A DNA stretch of 64,000 nt from Alphaproteobacteria bacterium (GCA_009785175.1 WQWV01000001.1:60963-124962), one strand, 5' to 3'; counted from the first letter of the stretch, positions 20,802-27,126 are shown. A program made the numbers and translations. The notes: a model not told the origin generated them from the letters alone.

Positions 20802-21674
20802 TCAATAAACAATCGATACGTCTTGCCGGCTAACGATTTTGAAACCCGAGAAAGAATCAATCAACTCAAGCGTCGTCTCTTCTTGTGAACGCAAGGCGTA
20901 TTCGATTTTTTTATCATGAAGGCGGGCGTCGATGTTGTCGCCGGCGCGGCTCATGGCCTGTGCGCGCGAGATATGCTCGGCCTCAAGCGACAGGCACAAA
21001 GCGCGGAACAGCCGGGAGTATGCATACTGCGCCATGATTTTCGCCATCGTTTCCGACGCATTCGCGCCCACATCGGGTATGGCCTTGTCCGCCCACGGCA
21101 CGGACCGTATCGAGTTGAGTTTCACATCGTCGATCGGGAATATTTTTTTCTCCATAACATGGATTCTTCCGCCCGATCGCACGTTATGCACGATAACGAT
21201 CGAGCCGCCGGATTCCGCAAGTTTGGCAACTTCGAGCGCAAGCATTATCTCTTCCGCCACTGCGGCAAGTCGCCCGACCGATTTCGGCATCTCCATGAAT
21301 TGCTTGAACTGTTGGTGATACCTAGCCCTAAGGGCCCGCCCGCAAATTATGACCTCTGCTCCGGCAACGCGTGAACCCATCGCCTCGAAGTGATGCACCA
21401 CGCCCTTGTTAAGCTTTCCGACAAGCCCGATGTCCGACCCTATAAGCACTACTTTTTTAATAACAGAATCGGGCGCAGCCGCCACAATCCGTGGCTCCGC
21501 CTTGAATACAGCCCGCATTGCAAGCTCGAGATTCGCGGCGAATTCGTCTGCCGATAACGCTGCCTTCACGAACTTGGCCCCTGCCGCCGCAGACATGGTT
21601 TTAAGGGATGAAACCACGCTCTTCATTTTCGAAAGCGTGTTGATCTGGCGTTTTACTTGGCTAAGGTTTGGCAT
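20802..21674 (-). CDS. atpG: N-ATPase gamma subunit
   Basis: F1-gamma fold signatures; last gene of the atpDCQRBEFAG order. Confidence 0.8.
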   Translation of the reverse strand: MPNLSQVKRQINTLSKMKSVVSSLKTMSAAAGAKFVKAALSADEFAANLELAMRAVFKAEPRIVAAAPDSVIKKVVLIGSDIGLVGKLNKGVVHHFEAMGSRVAGAEVIICGRALRARYHQQFKQFMEMPKSVGRLAAVAEEIMLALEVAKLAESGGSIVIVHNVRSGGRIHVMEKKIFPIDDVKLNSIRSVPWADKAIPDVGANASETMAKIMAQYAYSRLFRALCLSLEAEHISRAQAMSRAGDNIDARLHDKKIEYALRSQEETTLELIDSFSGFKIVSRQDVSIVY

Positions 21675-23091
21675 TCCTCATCACCTTCTTAAGCTGCTCC
21701 ATCTCGGGGTTGGAAAGCGCCACGCCGGACGCTATTTTTTTCCACAACGCGGATGCGGATTTCTTAACCGCCGCCACGATCTTGGCGGCGAACGGCAATA
21801 CCTTTTCGATCTTGATCCTGTCGAACAATCCCGCCTCGAGCGCCACAAGCATTACGGCCAAAGCCGCGCCCTCCACCGGCTCGCCATAGTTCTGTTTCAA
21901 TAATTCTCGCGTAGCCCGCCCGCGCGCCAGTATCTGTTCCGATTTCTCGTCAAGCTCGGAACCGAATTTGGTGAAATCCTCCAAATCCAAAAACGAGGCA
22001 TAGGCGGATTTCATATTGCCCGCGGCCTTAGCGAGAGTTTTTATCTGCGCCTTGGAACCGATGCGCGAAACGCTCAAACCCGCATCGATCGCCGGCAGCT
22101 GTCCCTTCGAGAACAAGGCCGACGATAGGACAATCTGTCCATCGGTGATTGAAATAACATTAGTCGGAATATACGAGGCAAGGTTTCCGGCCTGCGTTTC
22201 AATGATCGGCATAGCGGTTATAGAACCCCCGCTTTTGAAATTTCCGGCCCGCTCCAACAAACGCGAATGCGCCCAGAATATGTCGCCCGGATAGGCCTCT
22301 CGTCCCGGCGCGCGCTCAAGCGAAAGCGAAATCTGGCGATACGCGTTTGCGTGCAAGGTTAAGTTGTCATAGACTATTAAAACGTCTTTGCCCTGCCCTG
22401 CGAAATATTCGGCTATAGCGGTTGCGGTATATGGGGCGACATACGCCTCCGCCGCGCTTTTCTCGCTTGCCGCCGCCACTATTACTACGTTATCCAAAGC
22501 CTTGGCGGATGCCAAACGCCCGCGTATCCGCTGCACCTCGCTCATCTTCGCGCCAATCAAGCATAGCACCGAGATCACGCCGTTGTCCCGGTTGGCAATC
22601 ACCGCATCGATCGCGATTGTGGTCTTGCCGGATTGCCGATCTCCGATGACAAGCTCGCGCTGTCCGCGCCCGATCGGAATCATGGCGTCGATTATTTTTG
22701 TGCCTGTGCTAAGCGGGACGTTGACCGGCCTACGACTGATGATAGGCGGGGCCTCGCGCTCTATCGGCATGCGGAGTTTGGACGGTATTTTGCCCTCGTC
22801 GTCGATGGGCATTCCAAGCGCATCGACCACACGGCCAAGGAGTTTATCGCCGACCGGCACGCTCATCTGGACGTTAAGCCTTACGATTTTATCGCCCGCC
22901 GCGACAAGCGATTCGTCGCCGAAAAGCGCGATTTGCACGGCGGCCGCGGTGATCCGCATCACCATTCCCTCAACCGCTCCTACACGCACCATCTCGCCAA
23001 GCCCTACGCGGGAAAGGCCGGATGCCACCACGATTCCGCCCGCCACCGACACTGTGCGCCCGACTTCGCGGGCTATTACAAGCCTAGTCAT
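21661..23091 (-). CDS. atpA: N-ATPase alpha subunit
   Basis: GDRQSGKTTIAIDAVI Walker A, characteristic of alpha subunits. Confidence 0.9.
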   Translation of the reverse strand: MTRLVIAREVGRTVSVAGGIVVASGLSRVGLGEMVRVGAVEGMVMRITAAAVQIALFGDESLVAAGDKIVRLNVQMSVPVGDKLLGRVVDALGMPIDDEGKIPSKLRMPIEREAPPIISRRPVNVPLSTGTKIIDAMIPIGRGQRELVIGDRQSGKTTIAIDAVIANRDNGVISVLCLIGAKMSEVQRIRGRLASAKALDNVVIVAAASEKSAAEAYVAPYTATAIAEYFAGQGKDVLIVYDNLTLHANAYRQISLSLERAPGREAYPGDIFWAHSRLLERAGNFKSGGSITAMPIIETQAGNLASYIPTNVISITDGQIVLSSALFSKGQLPAIDAGLSVSRIGSKAQIKTLAKAAGNMKSAYASFLDLEDFTKFGSELDEKSEQILARGRATRELLKQNYGEPVEGAALAVMLVALEAGLFDRIKIEKVLPFAAKIVAAVKKSASALWKKIASGVALSNPEMEQLKKVMRNAKP

Positions 23092-23827
23092 TTTTCACCC
23101 TCGCTATGAATTCCTCGATAAAATTTTCAATGGAAAATGATAGTTCCAGATCGCCGCATGAAATCAATATCCCGATCGGCATTTGAAGCACCCGTTCGAA
23201 TTTAACCTTCGCCTTCTCTTTCAATGCAACATCGAACGCCGCTGCGATTTCCCGACGCATATCGGCCGCGATAATAAACGGCGCCTTGACCAAGACCGAC
23301 CGCTCGGCCGCATAGAATTTCCTAAGTTGCGCCAACCCTTCCATCTTCCCGGTTTTTAGCATTTCGACAAGGCGCAGGCATATAACCTCCTCCATCGGGC
23401 GCGAGGTTATGAACTCGACCGCCCCGCGAAGCGTCGCCGCCAAATCTTCGCCCGCCGCCGCCTCAAGCCGTCCCAAAAACTTGGCGCGCTCCGATTTAAG
23501 AAGACGTTCGAACGCCGCCTGCCGAGATTCGATGTCGGATTTGAAAGCAAGCGTTTCCTCCTCGCGTATACGCGCGATCTCGGCCATGCCATCTTCTCTC
23601 TCGCGGGCAAGCTCGGCTTCCATCCGCTCGCGCTCCATGTCGAAATTCTTGCGCTCGTTTTCAAGCTCGCCGCGGGCAAGCTCTGCGGCTACCAGTTCGC
23701 GCTCAAGGCGACGCTTGCGCTCGCTCATATTCTTCATCACGGGGGTAAATACCCACCGGCGTAAAACCCAAAGGCTGATAAGGAAATTTATCGCCTGAAG
23801 TATTACCGTGATGAAATCTATGCTCAT
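23084..23827 (-). CDS. atpF: N-ATPase b subunit (long form; no delta gene present)
   Basis: N-terminal TM helix, then an extended charged coiled coil and a C-terminal globular part. 247 aa. Confidence 0.65.
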   Translation of the reverse strand: MSIDFITVILQAINFLISLWVLRRWVFTPVMKNMSERKRRLERELVAAELARGELENERKNFDMERERMEAELAREREDGMAEIARIREEETLAFKSDIESRQAAFERLLKSERAKFLGRLEAAAGEDLAATLRGAVEFITSRPMEEVICLRLVEMLKTGKMEGLAQLRKFYAAERSVLVKAPFIIAADMRREIAAAFDVALKEKAKVKFERVLQMPIGILISCGDLELSFSIENFIEEFIARVKND

Positions 23828-25317: not shown

Positions 25318-25696
25318 GTCTTAACTCCGCAAATAAACGACTAAGCCCAGCTTCCATGGCGGAAAGCACGGACTTCAATTTCTTCTCTTCCTCGACGTCG
25401 GTGAAGAATTCCTTTTTCACGCGCGCTTTCAAATCCGAAAGCGACTCGCCCATGATTACGCGCCTCGAGGATACCGAAACGCGCGACCCGGCCTTCACGA
25501 TCACCCCTTCGTCAAGACCTGCGAACTTCATCTTGCCTCCCGCGCGCCACGCTAAAATAGAAACGCCAAGCGCTTCGGTCATGTCGATATGCCGAGGCAG
25601 CATGGCAAACCGCCCTCTGGACCCCTGCGCCTCGACCGCCGCCACATCGCGGAATACGGATTTTTCAAGCGGGGTGATCAAGGAAAGCTCTATCAT
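25310..25696 (-). CDS. atpC: N-ATPase epsilon subunit
   Basis: Start at [12 protein letters not shown]; beta-sandwich plus C-terminal helix. Confidence 0.75.
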
Positions 25697-27126
25697 TTCA
25701 ACGCCTCCTCTATCGCGCCGATCATGTAAAAGTCCATAGGATTGCGCGTTATGAAGTCGCCTTTGAGAATACGGCGGCATCCGTCGATGGTCTGCTCGAC
25801 GGGAACGCGCGCACCGGGCGTTCCGGTGAACTGTTGAGTGGTGGCGAAAGGCTGCGTCAAAAATCGCTCAAGCTGCCGCGCCTTGATAACCACCTTCTGA
25901 TCCGCGTCCGACAACTCGTCGAAACCAAGCATAGCGATGATATCTTTGAGTTCTTCGTATTGGGCAAGCGTCGCCTTGACTTCTTTGGCAACGCGGAAAT
26001 GCTCCTCGCCGACAATAACCGGATCCAACATCTTAGATGACGACGCAAGCGGGTCGAACGCCGGATAAAGCCCCATAGCAGCCCGCTGACGCGAAAGCAC
26101 GACGCTTGATGACAGGTGCGAGAATATCGCAACCGCCGAAGGATCGGAGAAATCGTCCGCCGGCACGTATACCGCCTGAACCGAGGTAATTGCAGCCTTC
26201 GCGGTGGAATAAATTCGCTCCTGCAAAGACGCGACATCGTTGTCCAATGAGGATTGATAACCGACACGCGACGGCACACGCCCCATCAAACCGGAAACTT
26301 CCGCACCCGCCTGAACATAGCGGAACACATTGTCCATGATTAAAAGGACGTCCTTGGCCGCCGAATCCCTAAAATGCTCGGCGATAGTCAACGCTCCGTG
26401 CGCAGCCCTAAACCGCACGCCCGAAGGCTCGTTCATCTGCCCGAAAATAATAGCAGTGTTTTTAAGGACGTTCGAGTCCTTCATCTCGGAATACAATTCC
26501 TCGCCCTCGCGAATGCGCTCGCCGATTCCACAGAATACTGACACGCCCTTGTAATGCCCGGCCATGTTGTGTATCACTTCGGTGATAAGGACGGTCTTGC
26601 CCGTGCCCGCACCGCCGAACAATCCCGCCTTGCCGCCCTTGGGTATAGGCGCCAGCAAATCTATGGCCTTGATGCCGGTGAAGAACACCTCGTCGCTGGC
26701 CTGTACCTTGGCAAGTGCGGACGGCGCGGCATGCAACGGCTTCCAGTCTTTGATGTTTTTAAGCTCCCCTTCGCCGTCGATGGGATTGCCGAGTATGTCG
26801 AGCATGCGCCCAAGCACTCCGTTGCCGACCGGCATAACAAGCGCCTCGCCGTAATATGCTACCGTATCGCCGCGCGCCACGCCGTTTGTTGACGCAACCG
26901 CCAACGCTATGGCCACGGTATCGCTTTTGTGCGCGTTTACCTCAAGCACGATTTCTCGCCCGTCCGAATTCAAAATCAATTTCGATAAAAGTGGCGGCAC
27001 ACGCCCGCGCGCGAATAAAACTTCGACGACGCTTCCGTCGACGGCCGAAACCCTGCCCGTAAGGATATCCCTCAAATCCCTCTCTCCTCTTAGGCCAAAC
27101 ATAGCCGCGGCGGAGGGTATAGTCAA
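25693..27126 (-). CDS. atpD: N-ATPase beta subunit
   Basis: [13 protein letters not shown] Walker A; DELSD... beta-specific regions. First gene of the operon. Confidence 0.9.

Follow-up and report, generated by a model that had tools for sequence, protein, structure and literature searches.

Which kind of rotary ATPase is encoded by a gene cluster in which the catalytic beta subunit comes first and a delta gene is missing, and which ion does this enzyme move? The question is raised by an operon at positions 20802-27126 of a 64,000-nucleotide (nt) stretch of DNA from an uncultured alphaproteobacterium (GCA_009785175.1 WQWV01000001.1:60963-124962), which was analysed at full length and is referred to here as the window. 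The original prediction described this locus as a complete operon for an N-type ATPase, Na+-translocating and laterally mobile. N-ATPases are widespread but poorly understood, notably in what AtpQ and AtpR do, how the stalk is built and what these enzymes contribute to the cell, and biochemical characterisation is limited to one c-ring. With a probability of roughly 0.72, we read the operon as coding for a complete N-type rotary ATPase that contains AtpQ and AtpR, has no separate delta subunit, carries a b-delta fusion, is most likely coupled to H+ and acts mainly as an ATP-driven outward pump.

Gene content and family membership

Nine consecutive intact open reading frames (ORFs) on the minus strand fill positions 27126-20802 exactly, as seen in the ORF list for 19-29 kilobases (kb). 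Their order is beta-epsilon-AtpQ-AtpR-a-c-b-alpha-gamma, i.e. atpD-atpC-atpQ-atpR-atpB-atpE-atpF-atpA-atpG (Table 1). Neighbouring genes overlap by 4-20 nt at seven of the eight junctions, with ATGA-type overlaps at beta/epsilon and AtpQ/AtpR, and the c/b junction is a 10-nt gap; these counts use internal starts that drop implausible N-terminal extensions. No frameshift or internal stop was found over the 6.3 kb of the operon, and gene calls made independently for public metagenome contigs returned nine identical products, except that beta was called from the ATG at 27102. Pfam models scored above their gathering thresholds for beta, epsilon, a, c, b, alpha and gamma, and weakly for AtpQ (PF09527) and AtpR (PF12966). 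Among the NCBIfam models, those for the 'alternate F1F0 ATPase' (TIGR03305, TIGR03166, TIGR02230, TIGR03165, TIGR03306, TIGR03322, TIGR03321, TIGR03324 and TIGR03323) were the top-ranked match for all products but epsilon, a and alpha, for which they came second. Since all nine of these scores stayed below the curated cut-offs although the gene set was identified, the operon is a real and complete, yet divergent example of its kind. The predicted nine-gene operon was thus recovered in full by the ORF map and the Pfam and NCBIfam searches.

The beta subunit matched Pfam ATP-synt_ab (4e-68), and TIGR03305 ('alternate F1F0 ATPase beta', 638.7 bits, cut-off 752) outscored the generic atpD model (577). 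It has conserved K177 and T178 of Walker A, the catalytic residues E203 and R204, D265 of Walker B and the YVPADD motif. Epsilon was detected by ATP-synt_DE_N (1.9e-9) and TIGR03166 (81.7 bits, cut-off 100), and the same product of 128 amino acids (aa) was called on the Logan contig L083. For gamma (Pfam ATP-synt, 7e-30), TIGR03323 reached 135 bits (cut-off 282) compared to 65.8 bits for the ordinary gamma model. Alpha retained the Walker A motif and the arginine finger (SVSRIG) and matched ATP-synt_ab (7.5e-77) and ATP-synt_ab_C, while its match to TIGR03324 (534.4 bits, cut-off 750.5) began only at model position 23. Concordantly, the protein lacks 18-26 N-terminal residues, corresponding to the N-terminal helix, that are found in 15 of 15 other aligned N- and F-type alphas, and starts straight at the beta-barrel. 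A longer alpha ORF was ruled out by an upstream TGA stop, two codons from the ATG. Alpha was on average 45.5% identical to N-type alphas and 43.9% identical to F-type alphas; identities between the N-type alphas are 54-66%.

In the stator, the a subunit (Pfam ATP-synt_A, 9e-33; TIGR03306 'alternate F1F0 A', 168.8 bits, cut-off 302) keeps the essential arginine within AMRLYGN, equivalent to E. coli R210, as well as Q252. The b subunit comprises 247 aa compared to 156 aa in E. coli and is covered by TIGR03321 ('alternate F1F0 B') over residues 1-240 with a sub-cut-off score of 101.7 bits. When a profile built from 65 N-type b sequences was aligned to seven F-type deltas, b residues 175-245 corresponded to residues 106-176 of E. 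coli delta (hhalign 96.3%, E 1.6e-9), a relationship described as a feature of N-ATPases (PMC2881411). A six-frame search of the window found no ORF resembling delta or OSCP; the best hit of a hidden Markov model (HMM) built from the seven F-type deltas had an E value of 0.015 and fell on an unrelated ORF, and tblastn with E. coli AtpH gave no match in the window. A delta subunit hidden in another frame was rejected on the empty six-frame search and on the alignment of b to its family model through to its end. The absence of a delta gene and the elongated b subunit, both anticipated by the original prediction, were therefore upheld.

AtpQ, the small protein with two transmembrane (TM) segments, scored below cut-off with TIGR02230 (1e-9) and PF09527 (2e-4), and it aligned with 99.3% in hhalign (E 2e-20) to a profile built on 56 AtpQ sequences of N-ATPase operons. 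Matches of AtpR to PF12966 (4.5e-4, 21 bits) and TIGR03165 (1.2e-3, 19 bits) were likewise weak and sub-cut-off. Hydropathy analysis revealed three hydrophobic segments in AtpR, the second of which contains R46 and the third R79. Aligned together with the AtpR of its relative L094 against 51 AtpR sequences (hhalign 94.6%, E 7e-8), the protein placed R46 and R79 on the two arginines that are conserved across the family, in agreement with the intramembrane arginines originally noted. AtpI had no match in the window.

To place the operon, beta was used as query over 185,579 species genomes and retrieved 80 loci, exclusively N-type operons. The arrangement beta-epsilon-(Q-R)-a-c-b-alpha-gamma was present in 74 of them; four were cut by contig ends and two were interrupted or partial. 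The operon is incomplete in two related loci from Methylococcaceae metagenome-assembled genomes (MAGs): in L033, atpB is followed by unrelated ORFs, one of them 513 aa long and encoded on the opposite strand, and in L030 tblastn found beta alone despite about 8.8 kb of downstream sequence, which may reflect operon insertion or decay in some hosts. The best identities to relatives were 63-65% for beta, 47-51% for alpha, 28-37% for gamma and 25-37% for b. The closest relatives were L094 (JGI 3300042612 / MDR1008990.1), L096 (GCA_031276335.1) and L003 (a Hadza gut MAG).

Paralogue-rooted trees were calculated by neighbour joining, from Kimura or gamma distances and with or without the two closest relatives. 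The N references were the operons of the cyanobacterial plasmids pAQ7 and pREB4, and the F references those of E. coli, Sinorhizobium, Paracoccus, Neisseria, Fusobacterium, Acetoanaerobium and Limosilactobacillus. Beta of the window grouped with L003, L094 and L096 at 100% bootstrap, and this group nested among uncultured and gut alphaproteobacterial MAGs at 69-88%. The N clade including the window beta received 78-88% with Kimura and 39% with gamma distances, and the seven F-type betas formed a clade at 100%. Alpha fell outside the F clade at 98-100%. In size-matched HMM comparisons, beta preferred the N over the F model by 69 bits (637.9 versus 568.9) and alpha by 30-47 bits (549.7 versus 520.0 when size-matched). 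On the basis of gene order, the presence of AtpQ and of AtpR with its arginines, the best-ranking NCBIfam models and the beta tree, we assign the operon to the N-ATPases as a probable long-branch member. Membership in this family, as originally proposed, therefore stands for gene content and beta, while alpha is placed outside the F clade without clearly joining the N clade.

Two local features of the assembled sequence are recorded here. Within atpF, at about 23342-23377, an ENA contig of 84 kb breaks, as do two Logan contigs that overlap by about 30 nt. As independent short-read assemblies break at one spot, this suggests a strain polymorphism or a graph branch; no repeat explaining the break was found there. 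A 20-bp direct duplication (two copies, 85% match) at 23818-23856 covers the stop codon of atpE and the start codon of atpF. Scans for promoter and terminator consensus sequences performed no better than on shuffled sequence, and Rfam returned two tRNAs only, both distant from the operon.

The c subunit and the coupling ion

The c subunit matched TIGR03322 ('alternate F1F0 C') with 114.9 bits (cut-off 130.85). Aligned to the c subunit of Ilyobacter tartaricus, its ion site reads E32, M63, E65, T66, V67 and Y70 (ETVxxY), and glutamates in both helices, E32 and E65, form a two-carboxylate site. The ligand set for Na+ (Glu/Gln32, Glu65, Ser66, Thr67 and Tyr70; ESTxxY) is incomplete, with Ser66 changed to Thr and Thr67 to Val. 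Among 76 other N-type c subunits, 42 carry E/ESTxxY and two Q/ESTxxY, and the remainder vary at position 67. The combination of T66 with a hydrophobic residue at position 67 occurs in none of the 76, leaving the window alone among 77 sequences. The N-type c subunit of Burkholderia pyrrocinia reads E/ETMxxY. Helix 1 of the window c subunit, G-I-A-V-E29-V-A-E32-G, contains a second acidic residue and has lost Pro28, a configuration seen in no compared sequence; the change from Gly/Ser29 to Glu falls within the c-ring packing motif. The Ala/Gly-rich C-terminal tail of this protein differs from those of L094 and L096.

For the c17 ring of B. pseudomallei (E30/E61-T62-M63-Y66), NCD-4 labelling was insensitive to Na+, and the enzyme was concluded to be H+-coupled, contrary to the expectation from sequence (PMC5376962). 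A published rule moreover predicts H+ coupling upon loss of any Na+ ligand (PMC2881411; ProAD, PMC11738941). Because a site of the Burkholderia type was measured as H+-selective and because of this rule, H+ is the better prediction, and the ETVxxY motif makes H+ rather than Na+ most likely the coupling ion of the window enzyme. In this point our reading departs from the Na+ translocation proposed originally.

All catalytic and ion-path residues considered are kept, namely the P-loop Lys/Thr and the catalytic Glu/Arg of beta, the arginine finger of alpha, the arginine of a and Glu65 of c. The enzyme would assemble as alpha3beta3-gamma-epsilon on a c-ring, completed by the a subunit and a b-delta stalk. 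AtpQ and AtpR would help to assemble or regulate the two-carboxylate c-ring, following the proposal made for the family. The complex would work mainly as an ATP-driven outward ion pump, and is probably an ATP-driven proton pump.

Several points weigh against this interpretation. The 'alternate F1F0' scores are below cut-off for every one of the nine products, and alpha joins the N clade at 5-10% only, lying with its three closest relatives near the N/F split. The lost N-terminal helix of alpha and the extra Glu29 of c could mean an altered or impaired complex. Both the ion specificity and the pumping direction are inferred from sequence. Furthermore, the closest relatives carry ESCxxY (L094 and L096) or ESTxxY (L003), and Dibrova et al. 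suggested that Glu32 might provide two ligands and thereby rescue Na+ binding without Thr67 (PMC2881411).

The last two points lead to the first alternative, an N-ATPase that exports Na+ because Glu32 and Glu65, the Thr66 hydroxyl and Tyr70 still coordinate this ion. The hydroxyl group is indeed still present on Thr66, the relative L015 has ETTxxY, and E/ESTxxY is found in most N-type c subunits, including those of the wider gut-alphaproteobacterial clade. However, the window c subunit combines both substitutions, Ser66 to Thr and Thr67 to Val, and the only biochemically tested N-type ring with such a pattern, that of B. pseudomallei, is H+-selective and showed no effect of Na+. As the published rule also yields H+ whenever any Na+ ligand is lost, we regard Na+ export as possible, though unlikely.

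Chromosomal setting, host and further alternatives

The predicted lateral mobility of the operon is not borne out by its surroundings. Its GC content is 54.7%, compared to 52.0% in the rest of the window and 52.3% in the whole window. GC at third codon positions ranges from 0.58 to 0.67 in the operon and from 0.54 to 0.70 in the other window genes. Relative synonymous codon usage of the operon correlates with that of the other genes at 0.93, close to the control value of 0.94 between two halves of the other genes. The operon is thus native-like in the GC and codon-usage comparison for which the original prediction had called. As the GC content of N-ATPase operons usually tracks that of the host (Dibrova et al., PMC2881411), composition is weak evidence of residency and synteny is stronger. 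Downstream of the operon are genes for a DUF192 protein, RbfA and a NUDIX protein; upstream are two orphans, a MotB/OmpA-like gene, a MotA/ExbB-like gene, another orphan and the genes for tryptophanyl- and arginyl-tRNA synthetase. The gamma-DUF192-RbfA order is common to the window and L003, and the block of MotA-like, MotB-like and the two tRNA synthetase genes adjoins the N-ATPase operon in L094 also. The scan of flanking ORFs gave neither an integrase nor a transposase. This shows that the operon has been resident long enough for its flanks to be common with relatives, and by composition and gene order it looks like an old, vertically inherited resident and not a recently acquired island.

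The stator-like MotA/MotB-like pair is encoded on the strand of the operon, 1.6 kb upstream of atpD, which confirms the adjacency pointed out in the original prediction. A complete Zorya system was rejected for this pair, as only a ZorA-N-terminal-like and a ZorB-like protein were found and neither ZorC nor ZorD; the Zorya reading is also opposed by the conservation of the pair beside tRNA synthetase genes in L094. The 300-aa ORF just upstream of atpD, referred to as the phase-variable gene in the original prediction, had no family match, and Tandem Repeats Finder, at the thresholds applied, reported no repeat within it. The virB4, virB8, virB9 and virB10 genes of the window stand 17-37 kb from the operon, and in L096 virB8-9-10 is directly beside the N-ATPase operon.

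Table 1. Operon genes and neighbouring features, with positions counted from the first nucleotide of the window
Feature	Position	Strand	Remarks
atpD, catalytic beta	25693..27126	-	477 aa from TTG 27126; 469 aa from ATG 27102
atpC, epsilon	25310..25696	-	128 aa
atpQ, small two-TM membrane protein	25048..25317	-	89 aa
atpR, N-ATPase-specific three-TM protein	24791..25051	-	86 aa
atpB, stator a subunit	24115..24810	-	231 aa
atpE, c subunit	23838..24128	-	96 aa
atpF, long b with delta-C-terminal-like domain	23084..23827	-	247 aa
atpA, alpha	21661..23091	-	476 aa, highly diverged
atpG, gamma	20802..21674	-	290 aa
MotA/ExbB/TolQ-like	29632-30744	-	370 aa; PADLOC ZorA models, membrane part only, E ~1e-13
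MotB/OmpA-like	28708-29619	-	303 aa; ZorB 2.5e-28; Pfam OmpA
VirB10/TrbI, VirB9/CagX with SPOR domain, VirB8-like ORF, VirB4	44080-48570, 61860-63971	-	VirB10/TrbI 681 aa; VirB9/CagX 484 aa
Large ORFs without Pfam match	71-3331, 16569-17873, 27153-28055, 28183-28707, 30794-32086, 48619-49653		up to 1086 aa

The host of the operon is an uncultured, Rickettsiales-like alphaproteobacterium with a type IV secretion system (T4SS). MnmG, encoded at 53215-54900 on the plus strand, is 100% identical to MCL2438997.1 ('MAG: Alphaproteobacteria bacterium'), and its next best match reaches 62% ('Rickettsiales bacterium' MAGs). Since the best beta match in species-representative genomes is likewise no closer than 63%, the host belongs to a deep, sparsely sampled lineage.

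A second alternative holds that this N-ATPase is the sole rotary ATPase of its genome, having replaced the F-type enzyme. It would then act as a housekeeping generator of proton-motive force, or as an ATP synthase at low ion-motive force, in a reduced, respiration-poor and partner-dependent host. The position of the operon amid housekeeping genes with host-like composition, its vertical inheritance in a clade of uncultured alphaproteobacteria, and the T4SS, the many orphan genes and the major facilitator superfamily (MFS) transporters of the window are in line with this idea. In the gut alphaproteobacterial order Rs-D84, genomes are smaller than 1 Mb and lack respiratory chains, and F0F1-type ATPases are present in only 'some' (PMC12306168). 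On the other hand, N-ATPases are nearly always second copies and have been described as 'always the second' enzyme (PMC2881411), and a 2025 survey with ProAD over GTDB genomes found the N-only state in a single exception, the Chloroflexota genus T78 (PMC11738941). The evidence moreover covers 64 kb, in which E. coli ATPase subunits match this operon only and no second ATPase is present, and the host may not belong to Rs-D84, so we consider a sole N-ATPase rather improbable. Should it nevertheless prove true, the 'always the second' rule would be broken for a second phylum.

An extended version of this idea, to which we give similarly little credence, adds a switch from Na+ to H+, a housekeeping role and a remodelled stator attachment within a deep-branching, T4SS-bearing, Rickettsiales-like lineage, the remodelling being suggested by the missing N-terminal helix of alpha. 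ATP from fermentation would be hydrolysed to build up a proton-motive force for the adjacent MotA/MotB-like pair and the MFS transporters.

A second ATPase under relaxed functional constraint that is decaying and heading for loss is very unlikely: the unusual divergence of alpha (45.5% compared to 54-66% among N-type alphas), gamma and b, the lost alpha helix, the sub-cut-off family scores throughout and the drastic change of Gly/Ser29 to Glu in the c-ring packing motif would fit it, but the 6.3 kb are free of frameshifts and internal stops with start/stop overlaps preserved, every catalytic and ion-path residue checked is conserved, independent assemblies contain the identical intact sequence, and the housekeeping protein MnmG is also just 62% identical to its nearest relative. 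The last value implies that the high divergence may be genome-wide.

Comparison with known systems

The operon adds a strongly diverged and apparently vertically inherited N-ATPase from an uncultured alphaproteobacterial lineage. Within a single small clade, the ion site has drifted from ESTxxY via ESCxxY to ETVxxY, a natural series for the residues that determine Na+/H+ selectivity. The alpha subunit moreover documents that the N-terminal helix can be lost, which bears on the anchoring of a stalk without delta. The loss of this helix and Glu29 of c are lineage-specific oddities in an otherwise known kind of enzyme.

A characterised counterpart is the N1No-ATPase of B. pseudomallei, H+-coupled with a c17 ring (Schulz et al. 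2017, PMC5376962), which has the same nine-gene order, AtpQ and AtpR, and no separate delta. Its c site also carries two carboxylates, Thr66 and a hydrophobic residue at position 67, reading ETMxxY compared to ETVxxY in the window. The N-type beta of B. pyrrocinia, used as a proxy for B. pseudomallei, is about 52% identical to the window beta. Unlike the Burkholderia enzyme, that of the window has no N-terminal helix on alpha, its c subunit carries the additional Glu29 and lacks Pro28, and it comes from an uncultured alphaproteobacterium.

The N-ATPases on plasmids pAQ7 of Picosynechococcus PCC 7002 and pREB4 of Acaryochloris marina share the identical architecture, with b subunits of about 250-260 aa, and their beta is 56% identical to that of the window. 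Dibrova et al. 2010 (PMC2881411) ascribe all Na+ ligands to them, and their alphas measure 512-513 aa compared to 476 aa in the window. Their location on plasmids fits lateral transfer, whereas the window copy is chromosomal-looking, compositionally native and syntenic.

The closest systems, L094, L096 and L003, belong to 'Rickettsiales bacterium' and gut alphaproteobacterial MAGs, and T4SS genes are among their common neighbours. Their alphas are only 47-51% identical to that of the window; the N-terminal helix is kept in L003 and L096, and L094 has about 16 residues before the conserved start.

With the F1Fo enzyme of E. coli (atpIBEFHAGDC) the window operon shares homologous core subunits and catalytic residues, and identities to the seven F-type references amount to 48-50% for beta and 42-47% for alpha. 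In contrast to the E. coli system, the window operon follows another gene order, lacks AtpI, includes AtpQ and AtpR and supplies the C-terminal domain of delta as a part of b instead of through a separate subunit, and its c subunit has a two-carboxylate site.

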